Shown here piece after piece: positions 1-43,877 of a stretch of 64,000 nucleotides of DNA. Under the pieces are notes generated by a model. It saw nothing but the letters and a program-made list of their open reading frames with translations. It did not search any database and had not been told where the DNA came from. The number at the start of each line of letters is the position of its first letter. Position 1 is the first letter of the stretch. A program made the position numbers and the translations under genes. Origin of the DNA: an uncultured Candidatus Poseidoniales archaeon (GTDB lineage: Archaea > Thermoplasmatota > Poseidoniia > Poseidoniales > Poseidoniaceae); NCBI GenBank assembly GCA_964526385.1, contig CAZGJD010000003.1, positions 55,225 through 119,224 of the forward strand, written 5' to 3'.

Positions 1-3000
1 TCTCCAAGCTGAGATGAAGAGATCTCCATTTCCCATGTTCCATCAGGTTTTACCGTGGTTGCATTAAGATAGATTTCGCCTTTTACCTTCTTTGCAGTAA
101 CTTGAGATCCTGGCAAACCAGTTCCTCTGAATTCAGCAGAGTCTTCGAAGACAACAATTCCCGAATCTACTCTTTGAGCACTAAATTGTACTCCCTTGAC
201 CATAAAGCTCACTGGGTACGAAACAGCAAGAGAATCATGGATATCTCTTGCCTCGATTATTACGTTGACCAAAGACCAATCAGAAATTTCTGAAGATATC
301 AAATATTTCGAGTTCATTGGATTATAGGTTAGTACTCCATCTGGAGATATTAGAATATGATCGAAGTAATCATCGTCTTCAACTGTTGCTGGGCTATCAT
401 AAACATTCCATGTGAAGTGCTGGGAAGAAGGACCTATTCCGTCTGAATCATTGAAGAAATCAAGTAAATTGATACTTGCACTCTCACACCTTTCGAAACT
501 TGAGGATTTTTCGTCACAAAATATTGTCATTGTATCTGGCCAATTATCTTCGTTAACAAATACAGGCGCAATATTGTCTGCTGCTGTCGGGTTATCGATA
601 ATTATTCGAACGCTTTCGATGTTTGAATAATCAATACCATCGTATGCCTTTACCCTTAGTTCGTATTGTTGATCATGAACTAGATCGCTAGTATCCCAGT
701 AGGTCGCCCAAGCACCATTTGACGCAAATGATGTAATAGGGTCAGGACCGTTGTTTAACTCAATACCGCTTGCTAGGTCGATTACACTAATCTCGAGACG
801 AGTTACTTGCCCATCGTTATCTCTTGCAACACCGCTAACCAATGTCTCTTCATCAGCTCTAATGACGTCCATAGGAAGTGGGTCACTAATTTGAACGATA
901 GGTATTCTGTTGTCGTTGTCGATGGTAATAGTAACTACATCTGGAGTGCATACATCGATTACCTCGCGACAGTAATTTGAATCACTTGCCCAAACAGTGA
1001 ATGTATAATCACCGCTTGGAAGGGCTGAGAAATTCCAAGAGTCGGCCCAGGTTGGTGCACCTCCACTTTCAGCGGCGTAGTTCGCCGAGTAGTTATTTGG
1101 CCCTACAACCGAAAACCAAATGTCTGCTATATCGCTACCCTGAACCCCTTGGTAACTATCAGATGCAGTGCCACTAAACAGAACTTCTTGCCCATCATGA
1201 GTTGATCCGTCAATAGGAGTTTCCAGATTAATTGTTGGAGGATTGATGTTTAATTTGAAAACTCTAGTAACTACTGTTGATTCATCTATACCATCTGTGG
1301 ACCTTACTCTGAAAGTAACATCATCCTCGAAGTGGTTTGCCATATCCCATTCAAAACTCCAGGACTTAAATGGCCAATTTGTCATTGTAACTTCTCCATT
1401 TGCACCTGAAGTGTCAGTAGCTTGATACCAATCTTGGCTACCATGTGGCTGAATTTCAACCTTCTTTACCTCTCCAAATTGACTAGAATAGGAGTCATAA
1501 TCACTGAAGTATGGTCCAGAATAGCCATCGTGTGCAGAGCCGGACAGGACTACGTTTCTTGCAAAGGATGTACCATCATGTTGAGAAACCATTACTGAAG
1601 GAGCCATGTTTGAGAGATGAACAACTTCATCCACCATACCGGTTAGATCGAAATCATGGGTCGATGTACCTTTTCCAAATTTAGATGCCTCGACAGAATA
1701 GCTTGGCATTTCCCTTCCACCAGATTGACAATCTGAGTCTTGGCCATCTTTGAGTGTGTCTCCATCATTATCGATGTAATCGCCACAGGAATTTTCTCCT
1801 GGGTCTGTCACGTCATGGTCCCAATTGGTGTCTATGTGGAAGTCTGACGGCAATGAAATCCACGGAGTATAACCATATGCGTCGGTTGTCAAATTGTAAA
1901 GCGAGCGACCTGTGGCATCTTTGATTTTGACTAGCGCTTCTCCCACTTGTGAGTTATCTGCCTTCACTTGATACCTTACTAATTCCGCTTGCTCTACTTG
2001 TACACCCCATGCTGTATTCTGGTTCTGAACATGTACCTTAGATCGGTCAAAATTCTGTACATCAGCAAACGTGAATGTGGTTGCATTAGCCTTCAATTCC
2101 ATTGAGAGTGGCATTCCTCTAGGAGGCCAATCAGCGGTTAATGGAACTGCAAGACACTCTGAAATATCTGTGTCACATTCTGCACCTTGCCATGAAAGTT
2201 GGACAGGATACAATGTGTTGTTTCCTGGGTCAGGAACTACTTCGCTTTGAATCGAAACACGCGATTCGGTTACGTTGTAAATCTGCGTTGCTCCTGAATA
2301 TGTATTGTCATTAAAGTAAGCGATTGAGCCATACTTGTTACCGTAGTTGTCATCATAATGAGAAATGTTAGCCGCAAAAGCATTTGCAGTCACTATATCG
2401 TTACCCTGTGCATTAACGATACCGCCTTTAATTCTAAATCCATCACCAATGCTATTTGTTACTATGTTGTTGATGAAAGTTGCAGATGACATATAGACAT
2501 GGAACGCAGGACAAGGGAAATCTCCGCCGTACATTGCTTGGGAACTACATGTACCTGAATTGTTAGAAATCTGGTTGTTTGCAAAATAAAGCCTTGATTT
2601 CGTTGGACTTGGAACATTCCAACCCTGATCTTTGTGATGGTATTCTCCAATCAAAACCGGTTCCTTTCCTGTATCAAGTATAGTATTATTTTCAGCAGAA
2701 ACATCTGATTCACCATATATCCAAAATCCGTTCCAACCGCCTATTGGTCCAATCGTATTGTGATTTGCGGTGACGTACGACGACCTAATTCCAAACCCTG
2801 AACCTTCAGCTGCACCAGATATTGTATTTCTGTTAGCAACTACAATCGCTTCATCGTACGCTGTAATTCCCGCACCTTCTGCGGTTGTAATCGAATTATC
2901 TTCTATGTAGAAAGTGTATTTTGTTGTACCAGTTGTTAGGTGAGAGTTTGTGTCGATTGCGTTACATTTTATGTCCATTGAGGAATTTGTTAGGTATCCG

Positions 3001-3875
3001 CTTGAAGATCGCAAAAATGCTCCATATGAGTTCTGAGATACTGTAATTGTATCCATTCTAACGAATGAATCCTCAAGGTAAATTGCAGACCTTCCACCGC
3101 CTTGGGAGCCACAGTCAGTTTCGGCACCTGTAAATGCGGAATTCAATATTTGCATCACAACAAGTCCTGCACCAGCTCCGTATGCTTGGATTGCAGCTCC
3201 TTGGAAACCTTCCTCATCAACGCCAACTTCGAAGGTGCCACCATCCAATGTAGGAGATGCGCCGTTAATTGCTAGAACGTTTGTTGTATTGATGTCAGTA
3301 AAACTTGGATTACTGACAGATAGCGATGCGCCATCGAAAACCAATGCGCCATACTTTACATTGCCCTGTCCTGTTATGTCTACTGGTATACCATATGCTC
3401 CATCGATTACGATGTGGTTCATTCTAGTAGCCGCTTGATCTATTGTTGAATCTATGTATATTCCTGAACCACAGGACAGATCTGGATTCCAAAGTCCCGT
3501 AACATAGCATCGAGATGTTAGGTTTCCACCTGGAGCATCGCCCCAAATGAACCTAATCGGAGAACCTGTACTTGCTTGCGTAGCACCGCAAGAGGAGTCT
3601 CCAGCGCAAATTGAACCTTGGATGTTGATGTTCTTATCGTAAGGAACGTTGATTGTAGTTCCCGCATTGATAATTAGTTTCGAGCCCCCAGAGATTAGCA
3701 AATCCCCGTCTAAATTGTGAACACCCATCCAAGTTTCTGTACCAGTTAAGGTGCCAGAACTTGTTTCATTTATCGCCGTTACAGGTGGAATCGTTGTTGC
3801 CATTGCCACAAATAGTGATAACATAAAAATGCTAACAATCCCAATGCTCTTTGTCCTCTGTGCTAAATCCGACAT
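1..3875 (-). CDS. large secreted cell-surface protein with right-handed parallel beta-helix (PbH1-like) repeats and Ig-like modules; start codon lies in the window, C-terminal end runs off the window edge
   Basis: A continuous minus-strand frame runs from ATG at about 3875 down to nt 1 with no stop, which is why it is absent from the ORF track. N-terminus MSDLAQRTKSIGIVSIFMLSLFVAMATTIPPVTA is a signal/anchor. Recurrent motifs NRNTISG, NHNTIGP, ENNTILD, ANNQISNN, INNIVTNS are typical of parallel beta-helix coils. Many N-x-S/T sequons. Confidence 0.6.
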   Translation of the reverse strand, partial: MSDLAQRTKSIGIVSIFMLSLFVAMATTIPPVTAINETSSGTLTGTETWMGVHNLDGDLLISGGSKLIINAGTTINVPYDKNINIQGSICAGDSSCGATQASTGSPIRFIWGDAPGGNLTSRCYVTGLWNPDLSCGSGIYIDSTIDQAATRMNHIVIDGAYGIPVDITGQGNVKYGALVFDGASLSVSNPSFTDINTTNVLAINGASPTLDGGTFEVGVDEEGFQGAAIQAYGAGAGLVVMQILNSAFTGAETDCGSQGGGRSAIYLEDSFVRMDTITVSQNSYGAFLRSSSGYLTNSSMDIKCNAIDTNSHLTTGTTKYTFYIEDNSITTAEGAGITAYDEAIVVANRNTISGAAEGSGFGIRSSYVTANHNTIGPIGGWNGFWIYGESDVSAENNTILDTGKEPVLIGEYHHKDQGWNVPSPTKSRLYFANNQISNNSGTCSSQAMYGGDFPCPAFHVYMSSATFINNIVTNSIGDGFRIKGGIVNAQGNDIVTANAFAANISHYDDNYGNKYGSIAYFNDNTYSGATQIYNVTESRVSIQSEVVPDPGNNTLYPVQLSWQGAECDTDISECLAVPLTADWPPRGMPLSMELKANATTFTFADVQNFDRSKVHVQNQNTAWGVQVEQAELVRYQVKADNSQVGEALVKIKDATGRSLYNLTTDAYGYTPWISLPSDFHIDTNWDHDVTDPGENSCGDYIDNDGDTLKDGQDSDCQSGGREMPSYSVEASKFGKGTSTHDFDLTGMVDEVVHLSNMAPSVMVSQHDGTSFARNVVLSGSAHDGYSGPYFSDYDSYSSQFGEVKKVEIQPHGSQDWYQATDTSGANGEVTMTNWPFKSWSFEWDMANHFEDDVTFRVRSTDGIDESTVVTRVFKLNINPPTINLETPIDGSTHDGQEVLFSGTASDSYQGVQGSDIADIWFSVVGPNNYSANYAAESGGAPTWADSWNFSALPSGDYTFTVWASDSNYCREVIDVCTPDVVTITIDNDNRIPIVQISDPLPMDVIRADEETLVSGVARDNDGQVTRLEISVIDLASGIELNNGPDPITSFASNGAWATYWDTSDLVHDQQYELRVKAYDGIDYSNIESVRIIIDNPTAADNIAPVFVNEDNWPDTMTIFCDEKSSSFERCESASINLLDFFNDSDGIGPSSQHFTWNVYDSPATVEDDDYFDHILISPDGVLTYNPMNSKYLISSEISDWSLVNVIIEARDIHDSLAVSYPVSFMVKGVQFSAQRVDSGIVVFEDSAEFRGTGLPGSQVTAKKVKGEIYLNATTVKPDGTWEMEISSSQLG

Positions 3876-4057: not shown

Positions 4058-5287
4058 TTAACCAGATTGACAGGTCACATTCTCCTGTATTTCAGTTAGC
4101 CATCCCATTCCATTTATCACGCCATATCCTGATTTTGAATTGTGAGAAATTAGTCCATCATCAGTGATTGTGGAATTCATCAAGGCATATTTTACTTCAT
4201 CAATACAATCAATATTTTTATTCTTAAGATGTGGTTCTGATTCAAGAATTAATGCCAAAATTCCACCGACTAAAGCTGTCGAATCACTCGTTCCTGTCGA
4301 GGTATAATACTGATTATTATCTCCAGTAGATATTAAATCTACACCAGGTGCGATTATCTCAGGCTTCAAATTGGGATGCTCTCTTTCTTGACCATCAGAA
4401 TTAACGCTTTCACCCAAAGAGGAGCCTTCCCAAACCTTTCCATCCTTTTGTGAAGCCCCTACAGTGATTACTCCAGGGACATTAGACGGTGTAGTGACCC
4501 TTCCATCATCACCGTCACCACCATCATTACCAGCGGCTGCAACGACAAATATTCCCTTGCTTAATGCAACATTTACGGCGTTAACAGTTGGTCCATTCCT
4601 TGGAGAATTAGGATCGTTGACACCTCCTAACGATAATGAAATAATATCTGCCTCAAATGATTCCCAGCACCATTCTATTGCATTGGCCACAACTTCTTCA
4701 TTACCCGTGTTTCCACCTTCACCATCATCCCCGAGAGCAGCTGCCATTCCGAGTACGACATTTGGTGCCGCCCCCACCATGTAACCATCAGCGGCCACGA
4801 TTCCTGCCATCATTGTGCCATGTGCCAAAGAACCTCGGTCTACGGGTTCTTGGGAACCTGTTGTAAAATCTCTGAAAATTAATTCCAAATTTTCAAAATC
4901 GGAATGACTAGCATCAATCCCTGTATCAACCATACATAATCTAACTCCATCACCTGTTAGTCCAATGTCTTGTAAGTCTCTTGCCCCAGAATCTTCGTAT
5001 GCCCATTCCGACGTTGGAGGTGGGATCTCAAGCCAAAAAAACTCCGACTTTAGAAGTGCCCAAAAAAGAATTGTCAGAATAACAAAAATACCAGCATTAG
5101 CAATCCTCCGTGTATTACGTCGCCTAGCAGGTACTGTATGAACGGGTAATGGAGCCCATCCAACTACTTCAGACCTCCACCCGTCTTGATGCCCATTTGT
5201 GGAGGGGTCAACAGCAGAAACTATTCGGAAATCGGTAGGTTCCGGCATGAAATCAACGTTGTCAAGTTGATTGTCATCCCCCCACAT
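4058..5287 (-). CDS. membrane-anchored subtilisin-like serine protease (peptidase S8 family)
   Basis: Catalytic triad motifs in canonical order: MVDTGIDASHSDF (Asp), HGTMMAGIVAA (His), GTSDSTALVGGILAL (Ser). One N-terminal TM helix (GIFVILTILFWALL) after a 70-aa cytoplasmic leader. ATG start and TAA stop verified. Confidence 0.85.
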   Translation of the reverse strand: MWGDDNQLDNVDFMPEPTDFRIVSAVDPSTNGHQDGWRSEVVGWAPLPVHTVPARRRNTRRIANAGIFVILTILFWALLKSEFFWLEIPPPTSEWAYEDSGARDLQDIGLTGDGVRLCMVDTGIDASHSDFENLELIFRDFTTGSQEPVDRGSLAHGTMMAGIVAADGYMVGAAPNVVLGMAAALGDDGEGGNTGNEEVVANAIEWCWESFEADIISLSLGGVNDPNSPRNGPTVNAVNVALSKGIFVVAAAGNDGGDGDDGRVTTPSNVPGVITVGASQKDGKVWEGSSLGESVNSDGQEREHPNLKPEIIAPGVDLISTGDNNQYYTSTGTSDSTALVGGILALILESEPHLKNKNIDCIDEVKYALMNSTITDDGLISHNSKSGYGVINGMGWLTEIQENVTCQSG

Positions 5288-5369: not shown

Positions 5370-8300
5370 TCAGAATCTACTAGAAGATCCCTTTCTGGCA
5401 ACCTTATATCCACCATACAATGCTAAGATTGTGAGCATGAATATAACTACAGTAATCCACGGGGATTCTTCGCCATCAGCTACGTTAGAGAATTTTCTCG
5501 AGAAGTCGACTGGCTCAACTGTTGAATCAAGTGGTGTATCGATGACATCCAATCGAACCCTTAGGTGTGCAGTTCCCGGAGGTAGGTCTGAGTATGAGAA
5601 TTCAGCCCACTCCACATCTTGTGCAGCGATTCTAATCGTGGTTTGCTGTGTTGGGTAATCGGTGCCTTCTTGAGATGCTTCGAGGTACACGATTACATCT
5701 CCTGTAGACAAGAATCCTGTGTTTTCAATTGGTACTCTAAAGATTCCATCCTGATTAGCAAACGCATCTGCATTTCTTGGCTCAATGCTCTCAGTCAAGA
5801 TAGTCAAATCTGCCACAGCAATTACAACCTCAGTTGAGGCGGTCTGGACTTCAAAGTCACCTTCACTTGTAGCCTCAAACGCTACATTACAATCATCCAA
5901 TGTCGAATTTGTTGGTGCAAATACTGTGAATGACTGACTCCTGTCATTGTTAGCAGCGATGGTGAGATTAGACAATTTAGGTGTGACATCCCATCCTGCA
6001 TCTACACATACTTGGGGTATTGATGAAGTAACCGAAACTGTATCATCACCGTTACCAAGGTTATCGACTCTTAAAGTAACAAGAACAGTTCCACCATCGG
6101 CAATACCGATAGATTCTGGTGCGTCTTCAAGGCTAATGTTGTAGATTTGGGGTACTCTCACAACTACTGTTTCTTCACTTAATCCACCTTCGGCTGTAAA
6201 TCTCATCTTGACTGTGTGACCATCATCATAGGTTATTGACTGGTTCTGCAATGGTAGAGTAATTCTAACATCAACCTGGTTTGTTAATACCTGATTTTCA
6301 TCTGAATTATTCTGGCCAATACCCATTGTAACATTGATGCTATCTACCCAGTTTCCGTCTTTATCCTTGAATTCAACAGACCAGAATTCTGAATCTTGGG
6401 TTAGGTCAAGTGAGCCAGATGTGCTGAAAACATCTTCAATTTCTGTACCATTGTAGATTAAGTTTAGAGTTAACTCGATGACCTCATAGCCATTAGAATC
6501 AGTTTCTGTAGCGGTTAAGTCGCCCAAGTCATCTACGGAATATGTGGCACCAGAGTTGACTGATTCGATGCTTACAGTAAGGTCTGAATCAACCTTCTTT
6601 GTAAATTGCATTTCCTTGTCTATCGCTGTGTCTTGGTCGATATCAACCACGATACCGGAAGAATAAGGCATGGTCAATTGTAGATCGTGTTGTATTGTTT
6701 CGAATTCACTTTCAAGGTCGACACAAGATTGACTTCCTTCACATGAAGGTAGAATTATGTTCAATTCTCCGTTAGTATCAAACGCTATGTCCCATTCAAC
6801 TTCATCTCCTAGAGAAATCGTAACGAATACATCTTCACCAACATCGCCTGCTGTTAGAACAGTGTTTTCTATGTCAGTCCACGAGCTTGTTAATGTCAAT
6901 CTTCCACCCTTTCGCATTTCAAGGTCAAGGGAAGCGCCTTCCTGAACTGATGCCTCGAGTAATCCAACAGCGATTCCTCCACCGTTGTCGTCTGTGTCAG
7001 TTCCTTCAACGTACACAATCCAGTTGCCCGGCATTATATCGTCAGACCAGGATAAGATGTCGTTTTCATAAACTAAGTTAGTAATCACAACAGGGTCTCT
7101 AACGATTCCAGATGCAGGGTATAGTGTGACGGTTGCGCCCTCCAATCTCATGGCTGTAGGAACGCTGTCAGTTACATTACCTGATACAGAAACTAGACCT
7201 GCAGTTAATTCAAGATCTCTGCTTTCATGCGTGTCATTAACAACATAAGCATATGTTGAGGAAGTTTCGTTCGTGTATGTTGCTGAATCAAATCCGGGTT
7301 TTTCAGCTTGCACATCGTAATCATCTCTGATTGGAACGAAGACTGACCAAACACCGTCTGCGTCTGTCTGCAATGTCCACTCCCATCCTCTTTCGGCTGT
7401 GACGTTAACGGTAGCATTTTCAACACCCTCCCCAGGTGATGGTAAGTCATCATCATTCAAATCCCAGAATATCTTTCCACCGATCAAAACGTGTTTGTTA
7501 ACTTCAACAACGCCAACATTCCAAATACCGTTTTCGAGATTGTCCGAGAGGTAAACTCCCTCTTCCAAAATCCACTGTTCGAGAGTTTCTGTTCTGTTGA
7601 GGTGTAGTGTCCAATCACCTGGCATTAGAACCTCTGAAATGTTTCCAAAGTTATCCGACGGGCCAAGACTTACATTACCTAAGCCTTCGTTGCTCACAGC
7701 GGTAATTCGGGTTGCTGTTACATTAACACCTGTAAACATCTCTTGTAATTGCATAGTAACCGGCATTGCAGTTTGTGTTTGCCAAACGATATCTCTCTCA
7801 GCTCCATTGAGGTCTAATACTCCTCTGAAGATTTCGGTTTCACCGCTATCGTCAGCGGTGAAATCCGCCACCTCAACATACCAGAATCCACCAGGCACAT
7901 ATTTTGCAAATGAACCATTTTCATCAGTATTGAGAGGATGGAAATCGTCACCGGCTTCATTCCTTAACCATACAGTTGAGTTCGAAAGTGCCATTCCACT
8001 TTCAGTAGTAACATTCCCTGTAACGAGATATTCAGGAATTATTGGTACTGATAGAGGTTCACCAGATGGACCCAATCCTAAATTCAGGTTTGGTATGAAG
8101 TCTGATTGCAGATAATAGTCAGTTGCATTTTCATCTGTTGGAAGAGTTGGTGACAACTCAATTGTATATTGACCGACAGACAATTCCAAAGTGACTTCTC
8201 CAGTTACTAAATCATAATCGTCTGGTGTAACCGTAGCATTGATTCCGATGCCACTCATTGTAACAATGTCAAATGCTGGCATTATCGCGCTTCCATTTTC

Positions 8301-11300
8301 CCATGTTCCGTCAGTAGTATCCAAGAATATTCTGAAAGTTACAGATACATTGTCTGGATTTGCAATCAAATCAACTGGTTCCATTTCATATCCAGAATTA
8401 TTTTTCACTACCGGTTCGACATTCATCAATTCATTAGAAACTGTATAAGTCCAGTTGCCTTTGTTCAAATTGAACGTAAACATGCCAGAGTTATCAAGTT
8501 GTGACCTCCACTCTAATCCATCGTCGTTTGTTGCTATGATTTCTATCGATTGGGAACCTGGTATTTCATTACTCCAAACAGCACCTGAGCCATTTGTCAA
8601 AGATTCCCTGATGTACACTGTTCCTTCTACATTTCCAGTATTTAGTAGGTATATGTTACCACTTTCGAGGTCTGGTGCATTTTCTACAAGTATTCCACCG
8701 GCATATGTTGAAGATCCGGAGAATCTGTCAGCTGTGACGTGGAAAACCATGTTCTCTGGTAATCGCATCGAGTAATTACCATTGAAATCAGATATTGTAT
8801 CGATGACAATTGAACCTGAACGAGCTTCTATCTTGACATTGCTTGCAGGCTCTATTGTTGCGTTAGATGGGTCATCCAGATAGACGTTGGTTAGATTCTC
8901 TAATGTTTCTCCATTATCCAATAACGTTTCGCCTTCTGCTCTGACGCTGTACAGCGTAGCATTAATCCAAACGCTTACAGAGTATGTTAAGTCGAACTCC
9001 ATATCCTCTGATTCTAAATCGAATTCATTCCACAAAACATATTCCTCGTCATTCTCATCGGAAACTATCCAACTTCCAGTGAATAATTCAACCGTCACAA
9101 TTCCATTCTCGTCAGAAACTGCAGTTTCGATAATTGGTAGTAAATCAGTGCTTTCTGTATTAGTAAAAGTCAATGTTCTATTGGATAAATCTAGGCCAGA
9201 ATCTCCTGCAAGCAGGTTAATTGTTACATCCTGTTTCAGTGGGATGAATGCTGCGAGTGAAATATTTTCTGAATCTTGGCCGACTGTGAAGTTCATCAGC
9301 ATTTCATACCAACCATCTCCATCAACATCAACTCTCCATTGGTATTCACCAGCAGCTATAGGACCATAACTGAAGTTACCTTCTTCATCAGTGATGATTT
9401 CTGCAATTGGTACATCTTCATCGATGTCTAAATCAAGAAGTTCAATCGTTTGATTTGGCAGTGGTTCTGGTGCTCCCGTATCGGTTGATTGAGTGAGTAG
9501 AGTATCCGCAAAGATAGAACCAGGTAGTACCATTTCTAGGTTGTTTGTTGGAGTCAGTCCAACTTCAACCGGGTCAGGTAGCAATACTTCTTTTCCATTT
9601 GGCATGATAGCTATCATGTTGTAAGTACCGGGTAATATTCCAGTCTTGTAGAACGAACCCGGGGCAACCATGTCACCCGAGAAAGTTCCCTCTCCGATGA
9701 ATAAACCAGTACCGTTTGCAGTTCCTATTCCTTCAAACAGACCTGTACCTTCGAAGGTTTCTCCGTCTAGATACTTAACTACCGTAACTGGCCCTTCAGC
9801 GGTCATCCTTCCAGTTGCATTTATTTCTCCCATGAAGTAATATGTGTCCGCTTCTTCTGTTAGACAAATTACGTGAGTAGAAGTTACTGTTTCGTTTTCT
9901 ACTGTTTCGTTGAATCTTGGTAGTTCAGGGCTAGAGGATTCGTTTGAATACTCACAAGATGGAATTGTATGTTCATAATCAACTGATGTTGCAACAATTG
10001 TTCCAGCACCACTGAATGTAGCACTAGCCGTGTACGACCTTCCATCGTCGACTATTCTTGTGAAATTACCTGTGAAACCTCTAACGATAGCAGGGTTACC
10101 TTGTGTGTCGAAAGAACCATTGTTGGTAAACAATACTTCACCGCTTCCTTGGATTATTCTCGAATCGCCGTCTTCAGTGGTGAATGAACCACTTGATGTT
10201 GATAGCGTGTAGTTCGAGGTCATACTCCAAATGTTCTTCAGGATGAAATCAATTCCATCTAATGCTTGTCCTTCGAATGATTCGTTGCCTGTCCAAGTAA
10301 CTGTTCCAGATATTCCACTTGAATCAACCGCAATATCGAAGGTTTCGTCGAAAGATGCTAATCTATCAGCTTGCTGACCTGTGATGTTGTAAGTTATTTC
10401 ACCCATCCAAGTCATGTTCGATACCTTTCCAAGAAGAGCGGTTATGGCGTTAGTTTCACGGTCTTCGTTAACATCAACCGTCAAATCACCTAGGCCACTT
10501 GAGTATTCGTTTGCTTGGAAGCTATCCTTAGCAACTGCATCGTCAAACTCACCTGCATATGCAGATGCTCTGATTTTACCAGCAGGCGCTATGAAACACC
10601 AATTTCCGTTCTCATCTGTGTCGGTATTACCGATTGGAATCCAGTATGTATCACTGTCAAGATCAGTTTCATCTTCTCCAGAGAATGCGTCTCTCTCTAA
10701 CAGTATCCTAACATCAGATAGTGGCAAACCATTGTCTGACATTGTTACTTGTCCGCAAATTTCAGCACCGGCATAATACTTCATTACTTTGACAAGGGTG
10801 TTTGAAGAACCAAGGCCGTCATTAGGGTCTTCAGCATTGTACCAGTTTGCAATCACCAAGTGGTTCATCATAGCACCAGGCATTGGTAATGCGTTGGTTA
10901 ATATTGAATTTGGAGTACCTGATTGTCCCCAGTGCTGTCCAGGTTGTTCAGTTGTTGCAAATCCAAGGTTCGGAGAACCATATCCAACGTAGGTTCTGGC
11001 AAGCATTGTATCAAAGAATGCTGGCTTGTGGTCAACTCTGACATCTACCAACTGTAGCGGGTCGAAGTCTTGACCTGCTTGTTGATTCAGGATATCCTTT
11101 GTCATTTCTTCATCGAACTCCTCTCGGGTCATTTCGTCATTGAATTGACCCCTTGAAGTCATGTAAACTTCATCCATGAAGGTTGAGAAGTCCTGACCTG
11201 ATAGAATTGAAACAGGTGCGAAAATACCTGTGGGGTTTCCGCCACTGTATTCAGAGTTGTAACTTCCACCACGAGGGTAAAGTTTTGTATCAACTGCCAA

Positions 11301-14300
11301 ATATCTAATTTCGTGGTCTCTGGTAATCAAATCACCTGGAGCTCCTTCGTAATCTTGAACAGAATAGACCGCATTGTTAGATAGGTCAGCGAACATTGTG
11401 TGGAGTGTGTCTGGATCCAATGATGAGGTTAACAATTGAGTGATTAGAGCGATTTTTGAATTTGTTCGGTGGATACCGGTACTTACAGAGTTAAATTCCT
11501 CGATTAGGTCTGAGGTATACCAATAATCTCCAACGATGTAGTGAGATGCTTCCATCTTCGTGTCAGCAGGTGACCTTACATTATTGTTGAATACAGATTC
11601 AGCATTAGCGAAATTCAAGTACGCGTCTCCCACACAGATGTCTACTTGCCCTTCATCAGGTATACACGGAATAATTTCTCCATCTTCGTAGACTTTGTAG
11701 ATCATTGGCCCATTGGTGTCAACAATTCCATCGACGATGTTGTAGCCTTGAGCAAGAACGACATCTCCATTGGTGTGGGTTACTTCGAATAGTCTTTCAA
11801 TGACATCATCTGACTCAAGATTTGTTTGAATCTTCACGAATTCAGCTACCTGCTCATCTGAGAGGTATTTACCGATTGTTTGAACAAACGATTTCGTGTG
11901 AACTCTGTTATCGTCACTTCCCACGTTGTAGATCATGTCTGCTTCTGACAATCTCCAGATGAACATCGAAACGAGGTCATCTTGGTTTCTTGACAAAAGC
12001 ATGTTACCTGCCGCAGGAATACCAGACTGGAAGTTGTCTGCTACTGATGGGTGGTCTCCAGTTTCAAGAGCTTGGAAACCATAATCCCACCACGATACGA
12101 ATGCAGGCTTATCGGAGTACTTCATCAAACACATATTTTCTGATGAGTCCCAATTTCCTGAGACATCATCACAAGCAGATTCCGATGTTACTCCAACGTG
12201 ATATACGTCCTGATTGGCTAACCATTCATAAGCCAAATTCCAACCTCTATCGTTGAATCCCGAACCAAACGAGCCTAGATACCATCTCGAATTGTCATCG
12301 TATGTTGAATCATCGAGTATTGAAAAACCAAAATCGTTCCACCTTAGGATGTCTGGAACTATGTTGTAAATTGTTTCATCCATGTTTGACTCATGAACTG
12401 TTGACGACGGCATTGCAGCGTCTAATCCATAACTTGCATGCTGAGAGAAAATAAGCATCAATACAAGACCAATTGCACTGAATTGTGGAGTTCTCCAAAC
12501 TGCTTTTCTTGCGTTGGTGATTCTCTCTCCAGGGGTTCTGATGCCCATTCTTCTCCATTTCTTTGCCATTTCACCGGCACCGCTTGCTCTCCAGAGTCCC
12601 GTGATACCCCACGCACCCATAACAGCCATTGCAGGTGCAGCGTTGAAGAGGAATCTTCCAGCTGACCAAGCCATGTATGATGCGATGAGAACCCACATAC
12701 CCAAAATTAGGTGAGGCTGATTTTTCTTTACTACTCCGTCCCACAAAGCAATGAATCCCATTACAATTGCAATAACGAAGACGATTGGTCCGAATGAAGC
12801 GAATAACTGGCCTCTACTCGGGGCACTCGCTTCCGCAATTGTTCCGAAAATCTTGTTCTTAGTAAAGTAACCTGAACCAGTGGTAAGCACTTCCCATGCG
12901 TTGGACATATCTGCTAATTGCAGTAAGTAAAGTACCAAACCAAAGACGAAACCACCAGTGAATAGAGAACCAAGGACCAGTAGCCATGGCTTGTCTCTAA
13001 ATCCAGTTGTAATCCAAGCTATCGCTAGTGTGAAAACAGCTATGAATAATAGCGGTTGTAATCCTGTTGAATTCCAAACCAGATCCAGCTGTGGGTGAGC
13101 ATAGAACGGGATTATCATGACGAAGATTGTTCCCAGCAATAGTAAATTGATTGTAGAGATTGTGGTGCTATCCTTCTTTCTCAACATGTTCATTGCAACC
13201 TGAACTACGTATGCAAGGAAGATAATTGCAGGTCCGTATACGAATCCTTTCCAACCCAATGCTACGATACCAAAACAGACACCTGCGGCTATGGCGTTCA
13301 TGGATGCAGTTCTCTTCTCCTTCATTACAACGCCAAGTGCGTTGTATATTCCGGAAGGCCAAGCATTTGTTGTTCGAGATAGTCTTTCATCTCCACCGTG
13401 TTTAATGGCACGCAGATAAAACATGAATGCTGCAGTCAAGAACAGCAAAACAAACGAATCGTGGTCAGCCATAGCCCAAGTTGATTTTTGAACGTGGGTC
13501 GGCATGAATGCAATTAACCAAGCCGCAATAACGCCAGCACCTTTACCGAAGTGGTCTTTTGCGATACCAGCCATTGGGAACACAATTAATGCACCGAAAA
13601 TTGCCGGTAGAGCAAGCATTGAATACCAAACAGCCTCGTCAGAGGACAAACCTAGGTTGGTCAATAGCATTGCAGCCATTGCCATAGACCATGAGAATAG
13701 AGGTGGTCTTGGATTGATACCTCCAACTGGATAGTTTCTGTCAGCATCCCATATCAAGTGTGCATTTTCTGCAATTACGTAGTCTACTACTCTCTTCATG
13801 TACCATGGGTCAGAACCTCCAGTTAAGTCCCATGATTCCAAACCGGAAGAATTCATTGAGGGCACGAGATACCACTGAATTCTGATTGCTAAGCCCGTGA
13901 TGAAAGCCATGAAAACCATGATTCCTGCCCAGTGATTGGACCAGAATACCTTAGCCTGACTTGGTTCGTGCGACTCACGATTTTTCCATCCACCGTATTG
14001 CTCGTGGGTTGCAAACCAATAGATCAAAACGCCGATGAAGAAGGTTATTCCAAACCAAATCCATACGGCCCAGGTTCCTTCAAGTCTGTCGCTTTCCCAG
14101 TGACTCGATTCATACAATGATGAAACGATGTATAGTAACCACATCGAACCTATAAACAAGGTCCTTGTGTACCATTTTTCAGCAGCCATCCAAGCACAGA
14201 CCAATGCTACAACACCAGTAAGTGCAGCAGGCCAGAATCCAATATATCCGTGATAATTGTCCAAGCCTGAGATTCCAAGAATATTTAGATCACCCAGTGT

Positions 14301-15029
14301 ACCGAAATAGTACAAAGTCAGAATGTGGGTTAAAGCCCATACTCCAAGTGCAATTTGCAGAGGAAGAGTAGCTTTGTTCCATTTTCCATCAAATGATTTG
14401 ATGTAGCCAAACCATCCTACATCGGTCGCAGGTGTTAGTACTCCTCGCAGTAGAACTGCAGCAAGTAATCCGAGTACTGTGAATATACTCCATGTACTGA
14501 AGAAGACATACCCCACAGCCTCTTGCCATGCTCCATTTCTTACATACTCTTCACCTTCGATTACCAACAAATTGGTTTGTGTATCCGCAAAGTTTGCTGC
14601 TGAAACAACAGCAGTCCACAGTCCGACCATGCTGAATACAAGGACGGTATTCCACTCATGTCTGCCACTGTTATCAAGAAGATATCCACCAAACATAGTC
14701 ACCAAGAAAATCGTGGCCACAAAGTTGGAATCTGCAACGCTTGCAACAACATTGGAGAGTATCAATGAAACAATCAATACAGCGAGGGAAACAGATGCTG
14801 TAGGGAATGTTATGATTTTTTTCTCACGCAGGTAGCGTGGTGTCATTGCCAATATTGCGCCTAAGGCAATCATAGCAAATGGTGTCATTTCATTCATATC
14901 CAGAACTAAACCAAAATCTAGTCCATAATCCGCTAACAGAGCCAACAAAATCGCTATGGGGGCTAATAGCCAACCAAGCATAGGTTCTGGGGCTCCAATT
15001 TTACTGTCGTTTTCTGTCGACATATTCAT
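5370..15029 (-). CDS. aglB: giant 3,219-aa membrane protein: extra N-terminal polytopic domain, then an AglB/STT3 oligosaccharyltransferase core, then ~2,100 aa of tandem carboxypeptidase-regulatory-like/Ig-like modules, then a C-terminal TM anchor
   Basis: Translation shows the STT3 EL1 signature DPWYMKR...IWDADRNYPVGG after a TM helix (about aa 420-455) and the catalytic FVSWWDYGFQ...VADNFQ motif (about aa 978, nt ~12081-12095). More than 20 predicted TM helices lie in the first ~1000 aa. The C-terminal two thirds carry repeats such as DEEGNFSYGPIAAGEYQWRV, TDENGSFAKYVPGGFWYVEV, SDFNGNYSMRLPENMVFHV. The chain ends in the TM helix VVIFMLTILALYGGYKVARKGSSSRF. Confidence 0.8.
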   Translation of the reverse strand: MNMSTENDSKIGAPEPMLGWLLAPIAILLALLADYGLDFGLVLDMNEMTPFAMIALGAILAMTPRYLREKKIITFPTASVSLAVLIVSLILSNVVASVADSNFVATIFLVTMFGGYLLDNSGRHEWNTVLVFSMVGLWTAVVSAANFADTQTNLLVIEGEEYVRNGAWQEAVGYVFFSTWSIFTVLGLLAAVLLRGVLTPATDVGWFGYIKSFDGKWNKATLPLQIALGVWALTHILTLYYFGTLGDLNILGISGLDNYHGYIGFWPAALTGVVALVCAWMAAEKWYTRTLFIGSMWLLYIVSSLYESSHWESDRLEGTWAVWIWFGITFFIGVLIYWFATHEQYGGWKNRESHEPSQAKVFWSNHWAGIMVFMAFITGLAIRIQWYLVPSMNSSGLESWDLTGGSDPWYMKRVVDYVIAENAHLIWDADRNYPVGGINPRPPLFSWSMAMAAMLLTNLGLSSDEAVWYSMLALPAIFGALIVFPMAGIAKDHFGKGAGVIAAWLIAFMPTHVQKSTWAMADHDSFVLLFLTAAFMFYLRAIKHGGDERLSRTTNAWPSGIYNALGVVMKEKRTASMNAIAAGVCFGIVALGWKGFVYGPAIIFLAYVVQVAMNMLRKKDSTTISTINLLLLGTIFVMIIPFYAHPQLDLVWNSTGLQPLLFIAVFTLAIAWITTGFRDKPWLLVLGSLFTGGFVFGLVLYLLQLADMSNAWEVLTTGSGYFTKNKIFGTIAEASAPSRGQLFASFGPIVFVIAIVMGFIALWDGVVKKNQPHLILGMWVLIASYMAWSAGRFLFNAAPAMAVMGAWGITGLWRASGAGEMAKKWRRMGIRTPGERITNARKAVWRTPQFSAIGLVLMLIFSQHASYGLDAAMPSSTVHESNMDETIYNIVPDILRWNDFGFSILDDSTYDDNSRWYLGSFGSGFNDRGWNLAYEWLANQDVYHVGVTSESACDDVSGNWDSSENMCLMKYSDKPAFVSWWDYGFQALETGDHPSVADNFQSGIPAAGNMLLSRNQDDLVSMFIWRLSEADMIYNVGSDDNRVHTKSFVQTIGKYLSDEQVAEFVKIQTNLESDDVIERLFEVTHTNGDVVLAQGYNIVDGIVDTNGPMIYKVYEDGEIIPCIPDEGQVDICVGDAYLNFANAESVFNNNVRSPADTKMEASHYIVGDYWYTSDLIEEFNSVSTGIHRTNSKIALITQLLTSSLDPDTLHTMFADLSNNAVYSVQDYEGAPGDLITRDHEIRYLAVDTKLYPRGGSYNSEYSGGNPTGIFAPVSILSGQDFSTFMDEVYMTSRGQFNDEMTREEFDEEMTKDILNQQAGQDFDPLQLVDVRVDHKPAFFDTMLARTYVGYGSPNLGFATTEQPGQHWGQSGTPNSILTNALPMPGAMMNHLVIANWYNAEDPNDGLGSSNTLVKVMKYYAGAEICGQVTMSDNGLPLSDVRILLERDAFSGEDETDLDSDTYWIPIGNTDTDENGNWCFIAPAGKIRASAYAGEFDDAVAKDSFQANEYSSGLGDLTVDVNEDRETNAITALLGKVSNMTWMGEITYNITGQQADRLASFDETFDIAVDSSGISGTVTWTGNESFEGQALDGIDFILKNIWSMTSNYTLSTSSGSFTTEDGDSRIIQGSGEVLFTNNGSFDTQGNPAIVRGFTGNFTRIVDDGRSYTASATFSGAGTIVATSVDYEHTIPSCEYSNESSSPELPRFNETVENETVTSTHVICLTEEADTYYFMGEINATGRMTAEGPVTVVKYLDGETFEGTGLFEGIGTANGTGLFIGEGTFSGDMVAPGSFYKTGILPGTYNMIAIMPNGKEVLLPDPVEVGLTPTNNLEMVLPGSIFADTLLTQSTDTGAPEPLPNQTIELLDLDIDEDVPIAEIITDEEGNFSYGPIAAGEYQWRVDVDGDGWYEMLMNFTVGQDSENISLAAFIPLKQDVTINLLAGDSGLDLSNRTLTFTNTESTDLLPIIETAVSDENGIVTVELFTGSWIVSDENDEEYVLWNEFDLESEDMEFDLTYSVSVWINATLYSVRAEGETLLDNGETLENLTNVYLDDPSNATIEPASNVKIEARSGSIVIDTISDFNGNYSMRLPENMVFHVTADRFSGSSTYAGGILVENAPDLESGNIYLLNTGNVEGTVYIRESLTNGSGAVWSNEIPGSQSIEIIATNDDGLEWRSQLDNSGMFTFNLNKGNWTYTVSNELMNVEPVVKNNSGYEMEPVDLIANPDNVSVTFRIFLDTTDGTWENGSAIMPAFDIVTMSGIGINATVTPDDYDLVTGEVTLELSVGQYTIELSPTLPTDENATDYYLQSDFIPNLNLGLGPSGEPLSVPIIPEYLVTGNVTTESGMALSNSTVWLRNEAGDDFHPLNTDENGSFAKYVPGGFWYVEVADFTADDSGETEIFRGVLDLNGAERDIVWQTQTAMPVTMQLQEMFTGVNVTATRITAVSNEGLGNVSLGPSDNFGNISEVLMPGDWTLHLNRTETLEQWILEEGVYLSDNLENGIWNVGVVEVNKHVLIGGKIFWDLNDDDLPSPGEGVENATVNVTAERGWEWTLQTDADGVWSVFVPIRDDYDVQAEKPGFDSATYTNETSSTYAYVVNDTHESRDLELTAGLVSVSGNVTDSVPTAMRLEGATVTLYPASGIVRDPVVITNLVYENDILSWSDDIMPGNWIVYVEGTDTDDNGGGIAVGLLEASVQEGASLDLEMRKGGRLTLTSSWTDIENTVLTAGDVGEDVFVTISLGDEVEWDIAFDTNGELNIILPSCEGSQSCVDLESEFETIQHDLQLTMPYSSGIVVDIDQDTAIDKEMQFTKKVDSDLTVSIESVNSGATYSVDDLGDLTATETDSNGYEVIELTLNLIYNGTEIEDVFSTSGSLDLTQDSEFWSVEFKDKDGNWVDSINVTMGIGQNNSDENQVLTNQVDVRITLPLQNQSITYDDGHTVKMRFTAEGGLSEETVVVRVPQIYNISLEDAPESIGIADGGTVLVTLRVDNLGNGDDTVSVTSSIPQVCVDAGWDVTPKLSNLTIAANNDRSQSFTVFAPTNSTLDDCNVAFEATSEGDFEVQTASTEVVIAVADLTILTESIEPRNADAFANQDGIFRVPIENTGFLSTGDVIVYLEASQEGTDYPTQQTTIRIAAQDVEWAEFSYSDLPPGTAHLRVRLDVIDTPLDSTVEPVDFSRKFSNVADGEESPWITVVIFMLTILALYGGYKVARKGSSSRF

Positions 15030-20256: not shown

Positions 20257-21210
20257 TTACAATCCGGGTGCAGACTCGAGCCATTCGGCTTCGTCATCAT
20301 CATCATCTTCGTCAGACCTACGTTTTGCAATAACTGCCGCTGCGAATCCAAGCATTGCTAACGAAGGAATCAATTCGAAACCTGGAAGATATACACCACG
20401 AACGTAGATAGTGATCATTTGGGACATGGAATTACATCCACCTGTTTCATATCTACAAGAGAATTCTGAAATTGCTTCGAATTCTAGAGTGTAATATTCG
20501 TCAGTCCAACCTTGGTTCTTAGGAGTTCTTACCATGACTCTAACCTTCTGAGGTGCTGCCATTCCGTCGATTTCAACAGCAACCATTGGTATTGAAATTT
20601 GGAATCCACTTTCTTCGAGTTTGTCCCTGGAAGCATCTGTAACTCCGACCTTGAACTTATCAGCCCAGTTTCCTTGGTTGTAAACCTTAAACTCAAAGTT
20701 GTGATCGGTCTTAGGAGATAGTTGCAAGAATGGCTCAGTAGCTTCTACCTGAAGTCTACTAAATTGAAGGATGTTGATAATCATCTGAACTTGTGATTCA
20801 GCGATGTTTGGTGGTGGTGCACCGTTTGCTTCAACCACTGTAGCAGTTACGATTAGATTTCTACCTGACATTGTCATTCTCTGGTCTGCTCTAACCGTAG
20901 TCTGGAATTCAGATTCTGCGTTTGGTCCAAGAGAGATAGTACCTGGGGCAGCAACAACAAGTCCGTCAGCCGAAACTTGAATTTGTATTCTTTCAGCGTA
21001 TGTGTTTGGATTTGTAACCTTACAGTTTGCGAATCCAGTCAGGGTTGCTCCTGGGTAAACAGGTACGTCTACCGCACCACTTGGATTCGGAGATAGACAC
21101 TGCAAATCGACTGCAGGAACAGATAACTGGGCCTGTGCAGGAGTAGCCATCACGAGAATGCTAGCCATGTATACCGCAAGTAAGAACAAAGAACGTCTCA
21201 AAGCCTTCAT
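20257..21210 (-). CDS. secreted surface protein with a signal peptide and a PGF-CTERM-like C-terminal anchor
   Basis: The ATG at 21210 gives the signal peptide MKALRRSLFLLAVYMASILVMATPAQAQ (the track start at 21375 is further upstream). C-terminus PGFELIPSLAMLGFAAAVIAKRR followed by the acidic tail SDEDDDDDEAEWLESAPGL. Confidence 0.5.
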   Translation of the reverse strand: MKALRRSLFLLAVYMASILVMATPAQAQLSVPAVDLQCLSPNPSGAVDVPVYPGATLTGFANCKVTNPNTYAERIQIQVSADGLVVAAPGTISLGPNAESEFQTTVRADQRMTMSGRNLIVTATVVEANGAPPPNIAESQVQMIINILQFSRLQVEATEPFLQLSPKTDHNFEFKVYNQGNWADKFKVGVTDASRDKLEESGFQISIPMVAVEIDGMAAPQKVRVMVRTPKNQGWTDEYYTLEFEAISEFSCRYETGGCNSMSQMITIYVRGVYLPGFELIPSLAMLGFAAAVIAKRRSDEDDDDDEAEWLESAPGL

Positions 21211-21355
21211 ACCTTCACCTATATCCAAGCCACAATCTCGACCCTCATAACCATTTTGGGGACTTGCCTTTACGAAATGGACATCAGTGAGTCTTTCGAT
21301 TAAACCACATATTGATATGATATCTCTATTTCGGTAGGGTTGAGAGGAATAAAAT

Positions 21356-21802
21356 ATGGATGATAAAAATCTCATTATCGCAGAAGCACACTGTGACGGA
21401 CCGTGTGGTGTCTACGACCCATCAAGCGCACGAATCGCTGGAGAAGCAGTCCAGTCGATGACGAACAAAATGTTGGCACTAACCTGCCCGTCCACAGAGG
21501 ATGGCCCAGCAATGGCAGCATACCTAAACACAATGTCAAGATACGCAGCTATCAAGGAAGAAGAAGCACAGAAGTGTAAGGATGAAATTCTTGTTCTATG
21601 GACAGACTTTTTCAAGCCCCAGCACCTTGAGGCAAATCCAAACTTGCACGACACATTTTGGAAAGCAGCCAAACTATGTTCAGCCTGCAAGGTTGAGGTT
21701 TCCGCTGAACACGCACAGGAACTCATGGACGCAATCGAAGAAATTCACGGAATGTTTTGGGCTGCCAAGGGACGTGAAGTTACTTGGATAAGAGCATCAT
21801 AG
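21356..21802 (+). CDS. sodN: nickel-containing superoxide dismutase precursor (NiSOD)
   Basis: An 11-aa propeptide MDDKNLIIAEA is followed by the Ni-hook HCDGPCGVYDPSSARIA (Streptomyces NiSOD mature N-terminus is HCDLPCGVYDPA). Downstream LWTDFFKPQHLEANPNLH...FWAAK parallels the Streptomyces LWSDYFKPPHFEKYPELH...FWETK. Confidence 0.9.
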   Translation: MDDKNLIIAEAHCDGPCGVYDPSSARIAGEAVQSMTNKMLALTCPSTEDGPAMAAYLNTMSRYAAIKEEEAQKCKDEILVLWTDFFKPQHLEANPNLHDTFWKAAKLCSACKVEVSAEHAQELMDAIEEIHGMFWAAKGREVTWIRAS

Positions 21803-22080
21803 ACGTCAAGATATCTGGCGATTCAATGTGGCCGTCATTCGTAGACGGCGACGTAGTAGAATTTGAAAGTATGAAAGATCAAATTGTAAATCTAGAAGAT
21901 ATTATTGTATTTAATCACCCTCTGAAACGTGATGTTATCTGTATTAAAAGAGTAAAAAGAATCTCTGACAACAGGTATTTCGTTGAAGGGGATAATCCTG
22001 ACCCTACTTCCTCAGAAGATTCTCATAATTTTGGTCTAATCGACAGAAAAAACATTCTTGCAATTTTGCAAAATGAATAG
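21784..22080 (+). CDS. sodX: NiSOD maturation peptidase (SodX, truncated signal-peptidase I / S26 family)
   Basis: GDSMWPSF (Ser nucleophile box), ICIKRVKRI (Lys box) and VEGDNPD (GDN box) in 98 aa. Starts with TTG at 21784, overlapping the sodN 3' end by 19 nt. It lies immediately downstream of sodN, as in bacterial sodN-sodX pairs. Confidence 0.75.
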   Translation: MDKSIIDVKISGDSMWPSFVDGDVVEFESMKDQIVNLEDIIVFNHPLKRDVICIKRVKRISDNRYFVEGDNPDPTSSEDSHNFGLIDRKNILAILQNE

Positions 22081-43820: not shown

Positions 43821-43877
43821 GTCCCTCAATCTATGCTAACCCTCTATCACATAAATTGATTTCCGACATTATGCCTA

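Follow-up and report, generated by a model that had tools for sequence, protein, structure and literature searches.

Introduction

To our knowledge, no type of archaeal N-glycosylation enzyme other than AglB is known. The core that it shares with PglB and STT3 transfers a dolichol-phosphate-linked glycan to the Asn of N-X-S/T sequons at the extracellular membrane face, and we take this oligosaccharyltransferase (OST) to have a GT-C fold and to belong to CAZy family GT66. The characterized AglBs have about 600 to 1,050 aa, 13 transmembrane (TM) helices and a free C-terminus. Their first acidic catalytic residue is located on external loop 1 (D47 in the Archaeoglobus fulgidus enzyme, AfAglB; D56 in PglB). 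The Poseidoniales, an uncultured group with a cell envelope of unknown nature, rank among the most abundant archaea in surface seawater. Many members of the Thermoplasmatota have no conventional wall.

We have analyzed a stretch of 64,000 nucleotides (hereafter the window) from an uncultured Candidatus Poseidoniales archaeon (contig CAZGJD010000003.1, positions 55,225 to 119,224), which carries a gene for a giant AglB of 3,219 aa. A preliminary description, made from the nucleotides and their translated reading frames, had presented it as a three-part membrane protein, in which an STT3 core is preceded by extra membrane sequence, runs without a stop into a giant tail and is re-anchored by a final TM helix. 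Our results indicate that this is almost certainly an active AglB encoded by a single conserved gene. On balance, we favor the combined proposal of an active AglB whose own extension would be a double-anchored, probably self-glycosylated surface stalk.

Results

Integrity and conservation of the giant aglB gene

The coordinates of the gene, its domains and its downstream neighbors are collected in Table 1. A second ATG lies two codons into the open reading frame (ORF) and yields the 3,217-aa version stored in databases, where one entry of this length (P0001) is 100% identical. A search of 5.8 billion proteins, with matches coming from JGI, ENA, NCBI, Logan and Tara assemblies, returned more than 120 protein clusters of 3,138 to 3,245 aa that aligned with the query from end to end (99 to 100% query coverage, 44 to 100% identity). 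They were named Candidatus Poseidoniaceae, Poseidoniales or “Euryarchaeota archaeon.” When one genome per GTDB species was scanned, 409 loci were found to encode a relative of residues 1-1100. All of the 80 loci that were retrieved shared the Poseidoniales gene order, and they carried the labels MGIIa, MGIIb or a broader archaeal name, save one mis-binned contig. The fusion is thus present in every Marine Group II archaeon of the sample, with no stop or frameshift splitting the gene in hundreds of independent assemblies, and the Poseidoniales affiliation implied by the preliminary description was confirmed.

Two oddities were seen among these loci. One contig (L055, NZEQ01000036.1) has the full Poseidoniales gene order under the name “Verrucomicrobiales bacterium ARS100” and looks mis-binned. 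In the metagenome-assembled genome (MAG) SAT94, there are two divergent copies (L007 and L069, PAJN01), which share 76% and 53% identity with the query; a mixed bin seems more likely here than paralogy.

Table 1. Coordinates of the giant aglB gene, its parts and its downstream neighbors in the window
Feature	Residues (aa)	Position (nt)	Strand	Basis or remark
Giant aglB/STT3 gene, complete	1-3219	5370..15029	(-)	3,219 codons + stop, one uninterrupted ORF
N-terminal extension, ~10 predicted TM helices	1-357	13959..15029	(-)	AlphaFold2 (AF2) and hydropathy
STT3/AglB transmembrane core	358-875	12405..13958	(-)	PF02516, TIGR04154, 3WAJ alignment, Foldseek
First catalytic acidic motif, external loop 1	G404-G-S-D407-P-W-Y410	13800..13820	(-)	Aligned to GGND47PWY of AfAglB
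Second catalytic acidic motif	D522-H523-D524	13458..13466	(-)	Aligned to D-H-H triplet (NDHH) of AfAglB
TIXE motif, external loop 5	T730-I-A-E733	12831..12842	(-)	Aligned to TIAE of AfAglB
Extracellular soluble domain with WWDYG, mixed alpha/beta	876-1410	10800..12404	(-)	Profile, AF2 secondary structure
WWDYG motif	980-984	12078..12092	(-)	Aligned to 3WAJ, 3VU0, 3VGP
Tail, presumably extracellular, ~15-20 diverged beta-sandwich domains	1411-3185	5475..10799	(-)	Transthyretin/CnaB-like, then CARDB-like
Membrane-proximal module	2936-3064	5838..6224	(-)	Like second half of “choice-of-anchor T” domain, NF041740
C-terminal TM helix and basic cytoplasmic tail KVARKGSSSRF	~3190-3210 (helix)	5373..5462	(-)	Hydropathy
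Signal-anchored extracellular S8 subtilase, 409 aa, directly downstream of aglB		4058..5287	(-)	PF00082, E 1e-39
Secreted right-handed beta-helix protein with signal peptide, second downstream		3..3875	(-)	PF13229 (Beta_helix); synteny

We have aligned 120 full-length sequences with identities down to 44%. The alignment was collinear with few gaps, and the identity to the query per 100 residues ranged from 0.30 to 0.74. In comparison with the closest relative (L006, also 3,219 aa), the ratio of nonsynonymous to synonymous substitution rates (dN/dS) was 0.013-0.075 in each of seven segments, among them the N-terminal extension, the tail and the terminal anchor, and 0.03-0.05 over the putative core/tail junction. 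The protein is under purifying selection along its whole length, and the three-part architecture with its anchor is conserved. An aglB from an MGIIb genome has been listed among the transcribed, differentially abundant genes of a metatranscriptome study (PMC9723583).

Short “stand-alone” N-terminal products were few in the database and were found on long-read contigs with a neighborhood broken by frameshifts, purD included. Two candidate stand-alone genes for the N-terminal extension on long contigs (P0396 and P0399) were discarded, as they proved to be frameshift-fragmented calls in long-read assemblies. In two pilon-polished long-read assemblies (L084 and L085), the giant gene was called as 4-12 fragments, with purD and other neighbors split too. 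Gene-length statistics drawn from such assemblies would therefore miss the giant AglB.

The STT3 core and its catalytic motifs

The Pfam family STT3 (PF02516) matched aa 406-802 with 65.6 bits, above its curated cut-off of 24.5 bits. The NCBIfam model TIGR04154 (archaeo_STT3), the OST subfamily associated with the archaeosortase A system, aligned with aa 370-1015 (E 5e-50, profile positions 2-572 of 831). The core could also be aligned to A. fulgidus AglB-L (3WAJ/5GMY) by phmmer and by family profile. This agreed with the identity first assigned to the protein, the WWDYG region falling within the STT3 family, and the motifs quoted at that time (DPWYMKR, IWDADRNYPVGG, DEEGNFSYGPIAAGEYQWRV, TDENGSFAKYVPGGFWYVEV and, at the C-terminus, VVIFMLTILALYGGYKVARKGSSSRF) were all recovered from the translation. 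The alignment with 3WAJ starts at about aa 359-398; therefore, about 360-370 aa precede the STT3 core, which is compatible with the ~370 aa of extra polytopic sequence that the preliminary description had claimed.

The conservation of the catalytic motifs was then evaluated in the 120-sequence set. Residues 405-410 (first acidic motif), the D522-H523-D524 triplet and WWDYG were invariant in 120/120 sequences, and so were T730, A732 and E733 of the TIXE motif, with position 731 being I or V. All four motifs were conserved also in the relatives of 2,000-2,800 aa that are presented below. WWDYG itself had been noticed from the start, with a placement (~aa 978, nt 12081-12095) that is replaced by that of Table 1. 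The core (aa 358-875) is the most conserved region of the protein (0.62-0.74 identity to the query).

AF2 models were obtained for aa 1-1100 and aa 880-2050. With the former, a low-confidence model, the top PDB matches in Foldseek were AfAglB, human STT3A/B and yeast Stt3 (E 6e-5 to 2e-3, TM-scores about 0.3), again in line with an AglB/STT3 assignment.

The soluble domain and the beta-sandwich tail

The domain that carries WWDYG (aa 876-1410) was matched by profile to the AglB C-terminal domain structures 3VU0 and 3VGP (E about 1e-6) and gave a weak AglB_core-like match in Pfam at aa 929-1015. In position it corresponds to the C-terminal globular domain that ordinary AglBs have, and it is the best conserved region outside the membrane core, with a mean homologue identity to the query of 0.62-0.69 over aa 1201-1500. 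The preliminary description had assigned some 2,100 aa after the catalytic domain to beta modules. Its stop-free giant tail was confirmed; however, the ~430 aa that follow WWDYG (to ~aa 1410) resemble the soluble domain of ordinary AglBs in being mixed alpha/beta, and the beta-sandwich array comprises about 1,770 aa.

Within this array, CarboxypepD_reg (PF13620) reached 81.2 bits, above its gathering score of 32.3 bits. Pfam finds only about four such units (near aa 1853, 2059, 2336 and 2533), the remaining modules being visible only through profile or fold. Self-BLASTP of the whole protein was empty at E ≤ 1, and when one CarboxypepD_reg unit was compared with the tail by hhalign, only weak additional copies appeared. 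Hence, the tail is not a recent tandem-repeat expansion. The carboxypeptidase-regulatory-like modules reported earlier do occur, but not as sequence repeats.

The model of aa 880-2050 was confident for aa ~1420-2020 (predicted local distance difference test score, pLDDT, mostly 70-91), with a helical stretch of lower confidence at aa ~1497-1533, after the first beta-sandwich. Its Foldseek matches were the tandem CnaB/transthyretin-like stalk domains of TIE, SdrD, PitA, BcpA, RrgB and SpaA (E 2e-11 to 1e-4). Transthyretin, NOMO2 and the SlaB S-layer stalk were further fold matches of the tail. The profile match to NOMO2 (9C7V_B) had an E-value of 0.0024, and the NOMO-like transthyretin families (PF22902, PF22904 and PF23194) remained under their cut-offs (20.6 vs. 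27 bits for PF22902); the NOMO likeness is only fold-level. The membrane-proximal module resembled NF041740 over profile positions 117-248 of 259 (E 1.7e-8), with a score (34 bits vs. a cut-off of 70) that falls short of full-length membership. Some homologues of the giant AglB showed CARDB or NPCBM_assoc matches.

The tail is acidic, with an isoelectric point (pI) of about 4.05. It contains 46 N-X-S/T sequons vs. 21.6 expected by shuffling, and the family mean is 45 vs. 18.6 expected, corresponding to a 2.1- to 2.4-fold excess over shuffled sequences. At 13 of the tail sites (N1538, N1548, N1606, N1772, N1859, N1922, N2023, N2146, N2245, N2301, N2371, N2452 and N2478), the sequon is kept in at least 80% of the homologues.

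The C-terminal anchor and sorting signals

A hydrophobic 17-mer was present within the final 45 aa in 120/120 homologues, which bears out the final TM helix with basic tail of the preliminary description. The Poseidoniales giant AglBs end in RF, KF or PF. The C-terminus of the window protein has the helix and the basic tail but lacks a PGF motif, and neither the PGF-CTERM-type models nor any other CTERM sorting model matched it.

Sorting signals were found in shorter giant relatives. A P(G/S/E/A)F motif occurred within the last 40 residues in 18-23 of 201 such proteins, and the endings inspected by eye or model displayed a hydrophobic stretch followed by a basic cluster. Some of the 2,000-2,800-aa relatives passed the Loki-CTERM (23.6 and 25.9 bits vs. 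19.9) or Heimdall-CTERM (25.3 vs. 24) models, and the endings of some nearly reached the PGF-CTERM cut-off. PGF-like tripartite endings were present in P0140, P0177, P0284, P0290 and about 15 others. The PGF-like tripartite signal is a tag on archaeosortase-processed surface glycoproteins. Thus, in the relatives whose endings pass these models, the OST would itself be an archaeosortase substrate.

The window also encodes a 372-aa full-length “choice-of-anchor T” protein (20257-21375, minus strand; 301 bits). It carries an archaeosortase-like C-terminal signal (PGFELIP...AKRR), which is followed by an unusual acidic extension and scores 20 bits with Heimdall-CTERM, under the cut-off. This signal suggests that the window organism uses PGF-type sorting, though without it on the AglB tail. 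BLASTP of the tail end against this protein gave nothing significant.

Considered together, the CarboxypepD_reg units, the stalk fold matches, the low pI, the sequon content, the C-terminal TM helix and the sorting signals of the relatives support that the tail would be a surface-protein module.

The N-terminal extension

In the AF2 model, the helices of the extension span aa 16-37, 45-69, 77-99, 102-120, 124-150, 165-193, 219-244, 265-283, 287-307 and 321-341. The pLDDT was mostly about 60-90 over aa ~15-310, and hydropathy was in agreement with these helices. Basic loops at aa 65-71, 195-219, 284-289 and 348-359 are consistent with an N-in, C-in layout, the N-terminus being probably cytoplasmic by the positive-inside rule. 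With such a predicted topology, the chain would enter STT3 TM1 in the correct orientation.

The extension (aa 1-357) had no Pfam or NCBIfam family match and no PDB fold match in Foldseek. In hhalign, it presented neither an internal 5+5 duplication nor similarity to the STT3 core. A profile built from 14 extension sequences matched Poseidoniales fragments only, and the extension was missing from the relatives of 2,000-2,800 aa. The extension is thus specific to Poseidoniales. A DMT/EamA-like or flippase origin was considered, and nothing was found in its support.

Shorter giant relatives in the Thermoplasmatota

A HMMER search with aa 1-1200 revealed, besides the ~3,200-aa family, a second tier of relatives with 2,000-2,800 aa, which were 29-38% identical to the query over aa ~360-1040 and had WWDYG at about aa 565-820. 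Nearly all are long-tailed and finish with a TM helix plus basic tail at the C-terminus. Their sources, where named, were “Thermoplasmata archaeon,” “Methanomassiliicoccales archaeon” and “Thermoplasmatota archaeon” MAGs, including megabase-scale contigs. In Pfam, STT3 and the AglB core are followed by several CarboxypepD_reg/SdrD_B/NOMO-type units and then by CARDB or NPCBM_assoc (examples are P0284 on CP070739.1, P0137 and P0215). These tails are about 500-1,000 aa shorter than the Poseidoniales tail, and few of them displayed similarity to it in phmmer.

Judging from this distribution, the design of OST, stalk and anchor is old and common in the Thermoplasmatota, and ancestral there; what is Poseidoniales-specific is only the set of ten N-terminal helices and the ~3,200-aa size. 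We have found no published description of the giant AglB in literature searches that covered subscription journals thinly, so that a description may exist. The fusion had been put forward as undescribed, which is in accordance with these searches; yet the design is common in Thermoplasmatota MAGs, and public databases annotate giant AglBs generically as “STT3 domain-containing protein.”

The genomic neighborhood

The order purD, giant AglB, S8 subtilase and beta-helix protein was present at every retrieved Poseidoniales locus with enough downstream sequence. In the window, gaps of 82 nt and about 180 nt separate aglB from the S8 gene and the S8 gene from the beta-helix gene, respectively. The beta-helix gene extends past the window edge, with more than 1,290 aa encoded within the window; the orthologue at locus L081 has 1,431 aa. 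This protein (46-78% identity) is better conserved than the AglB tail. In a Methanomassiliicoccales genome, a CARDB protein follows the giant AglB, and the opposite strand encodes an S8 peptidase ~2 kb downstream. In a Thermoplasmata MAG (L083, 1-7762), the giant AglB P0137 lies directly downstream of the genes for an 8,356-aa product and for a 1,077-aa Ig/PKD-type protein.

The window ORFs that were scanned included no further genes of agl or glycosyltransferase pathways. A gene of the scramblase family (PF03803) is located ~7 kb upstream of aglB at three related loci (L081, 2290-2901; L084, 2266-2823; L085, 1961-2575), with no counterpart detected at the equivalent position of the window.

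Other genes of the window are noted here. A 1,585-aa protein (30256-35013, plus strand) combines six lamin-tail domains (PF00932, E 1e-70) with a pair of PLD-like phosphodiesterase domains, which is unusual for an archaeon. A low-GC stretch (40687-46007, minus strand; 0.35-0.37 vs. about 0.42), perhaps an acquired island, carries the genes for two large Ser/Thr protein kinases of 782 and 709 aa with C-terminal kinase domains, beside a weak PP2C-like phosphatase. A nickel superoxide dismutase is encoded at 21356-22080 (plus strand), with the Ni-hook HCDGPCGVYDP and Sod_Ni matches in the orthologous loci. The end of its gene is overlapped by that of a small S24/S26-type peptidase, presumably its maturation protease.

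Discussion

In the reading that we favor, the membrane core (aa ~358-875) and the WWDYG soluble domain would glycosylate sequon Asn residues at the outer face of the cytoplasmic membrane, and the tail would form an extracellular acidic arch or stalk held in the membrane at both ends. The tail itself would be N-glycosylated, likely in cis by its own catalytic domain. It could be part of a glycoprotein cell envelope or place the enzyme within the envelope, and the transferase would thereby be kept physically integrated with surface-layer assembly. We propose this envelope-stalk role only tentatively, and the permanent tethering of the enzyme to the stalk, as worded in the preliminary description, is an assumption. 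The S8 protease and the secreted beta-helix protein would be likely partners or substrates of the giant AglB. From the comparison with the shorter relatives, the Poseidoniales would have extended an ancestral design of tail plus anchor by the N-terminal helices and a further ~500-1,000 residues. A bolder version, which we consider unlikely, would make the giant AglB a principal structural element of the envelope in Poseidoniales and much of the Thermoplasmatota: a self-glycosylating ~350 kDa arch that spaces or scaffolds the surface layer with the S8 and beta-helix proteins, its N-terminal block handling the lipid-linked glycan (e.g., flipping or recycling the dolichol carrier). If true, this would be a one-polypeptide “glycosylation plus envelope” machine.

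Several observations weigh against an active, self-glycosylating AglB. The TIGR04154 score (170.6 bits) is far under the 450-bit subfamily cut-off and does not place the protein in that subfamily. As a candidate for the DK/MI motif (+2 Ser/Thr pocket), only an invariant D1018-x-x-(A/S)-M1022-F-x-W was seen; this D1018-x3-M1022-F element lies 34-45 residues past WWDYG, and the alignments to solved AglBs end before or inside it and gave neither a DxxK nor an MxxI register. The AF2 model of aa 1-1100 is weak over the core (mean pLDDT 56.6), and the sequon excess could come from composition or local bias rather than from use. The low subfamily score and the unrecognizable DK/MI motif would be compatible with a catalytically dead STT3 relic, whose only remaining role would be to anchor a structural surface protein in the membrane. 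We consider this highly improbable, given four catalytic motifs that are invariant down to 44% identity, save the I/V exchange at position 731, in a core that is the best conserved part of the chain. For a chimeric join or missed frameshift between an ordinary AglB and a surface-protein gene, we found no support beyond some fragmented public gene calls, which come from assemblies with frameshifts in many neighboring genes. As there are more than 120 independent full-length clusters and 409 species-representative loci, as their alignment is collinear with low dN/dS across the junction, and as the fragments are confined to error-prone assemblies, we regard chimera and frameshift as excluded, the probability of such an artifact being practically nil.

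Two further alternatives accept an active enzyme. The chain might be a polyprotein that is cut after export, plausibly by the S8 subtilase, into an ordinary-sized AglB and a C-terminally anchored surface glycoprotein, so that the fusion would serve only co-expression and cis-glycosylation. The S8 gene is directly downstream in all retrieved loci reaching far enough, with an S8 gene also near the Methanomassiliicoccales giant, and the tail resembles a stand-alone surface protein in its choice-of-anchor-T-like module, its C-terminal anchor and the archaeosortase-type signals of its relatives; the helical, lower-confidence stretch after the first beta-sandwich would also suit such processing. Yet no conserved cleavage motif was identified, conservation is unbroken over the junction (0.56-0.69 identity at aa 1200-1600), and no natural split-gene form was found, the apparent separate pieces lying in error-prone long-read assemblies in which purD and other neighbors are fragmented too. 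We rate this cleavage as distinctly unlikely. It is also rather doubtful that the tail and the extra TM helices form a substrate-handling platform, which would replace the accessory subunits of the eukaryotic OST and, instead of building the envelope, capture or hold unfolded secreted substrates close to the active site or dock the enzyme to the Sec translocon. The similarity to NOMO that could suggest it is at the common-fold level and under family cut-offs, ~1,770 aa is far beyond the length needed to reach the active site, and the sequon load, the acidity and the archaeosortase-type endings of the relatives point to a displayed surface protein.

A conserved, syntenic gene of ~9.7 kb that joins an OST to a giant stalk is a strong candidate for a key component of the Poseidoniales envelope, and a concrete target for metaproteomics, cryo-electron tomography, and antibody or probe design. 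Throughout an archaeal phylum, the catalytic OST subunit has gained accessory parts that are very large and covalently attached. Eukaryotes combine the OST with accessory domains by means of separate subunits, and the archaeal solution is independent of theirs. Specialists would expect the OST enzymology, but they would be surprised by a fusion to a giant stalk that is order-wide and rooted in the phylum. Shorter versions occur in the Methanomassiliicoccales, an order with cultured members, and a test of the idea may be possible there, provided that cultured strains have the gene.

Compared with the AglBs of A. fulgidus (AglB-L; 3WAJ/3WAK/5GMY/7E9S), Pyrococcus furiosus, Haloferax volcanii and Methanococcus voltae, the giant AglB has an alignable TM core, the same catalytic motifs and an extracellular soluble domain. 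Unlike them, it has ~10 extra N-terminal helices, ~1,770 extra, presumably extracellular residues and a predicted 24th, C-terminal TM helix, with both termini in the membrane region. It is about three times longer, and we know of no biochemically characterized AglB near its length. The second-tier STT3 proteins of the Thermoplasmatota have the same domain order without the N-terminal extension and with shorter tails, and a minority of them bear archaeosortase-type PGF-like signals, whereas the Poseidoniales proteins do not.

The catalytic subunit of the eukaryotic OST (STT3A/B) is homologous, but there the additional membrane and lumenal components are polypeptides of their own; nothing homologous to ribophorins or Ost subunits was seen in the giant AglB. 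NOMO, of the BOS complex, is like the tail in being a long chain of transthyretin-like domains, closed by a single TM helix with a short cytoplasmic tail. The pilin and MSCRAMM stalks (SdrD B repeats, TIE, BcpA, RrgB and SpaA) and the archaeal SlaB are stand-alone proteins with one anchor and without an enzyme domain. Like the S-layer glycoprotein of H. volcanii and other PGF-CTERM substrates, the window protein is large and acidic with a C-terminal hydrophobic anchor, and its tail would likewise be glycosylated. Unlike the H. volcanii S-layer glycoprotein, it has no PGF motif and is continuous with the glycosylating enzyme.

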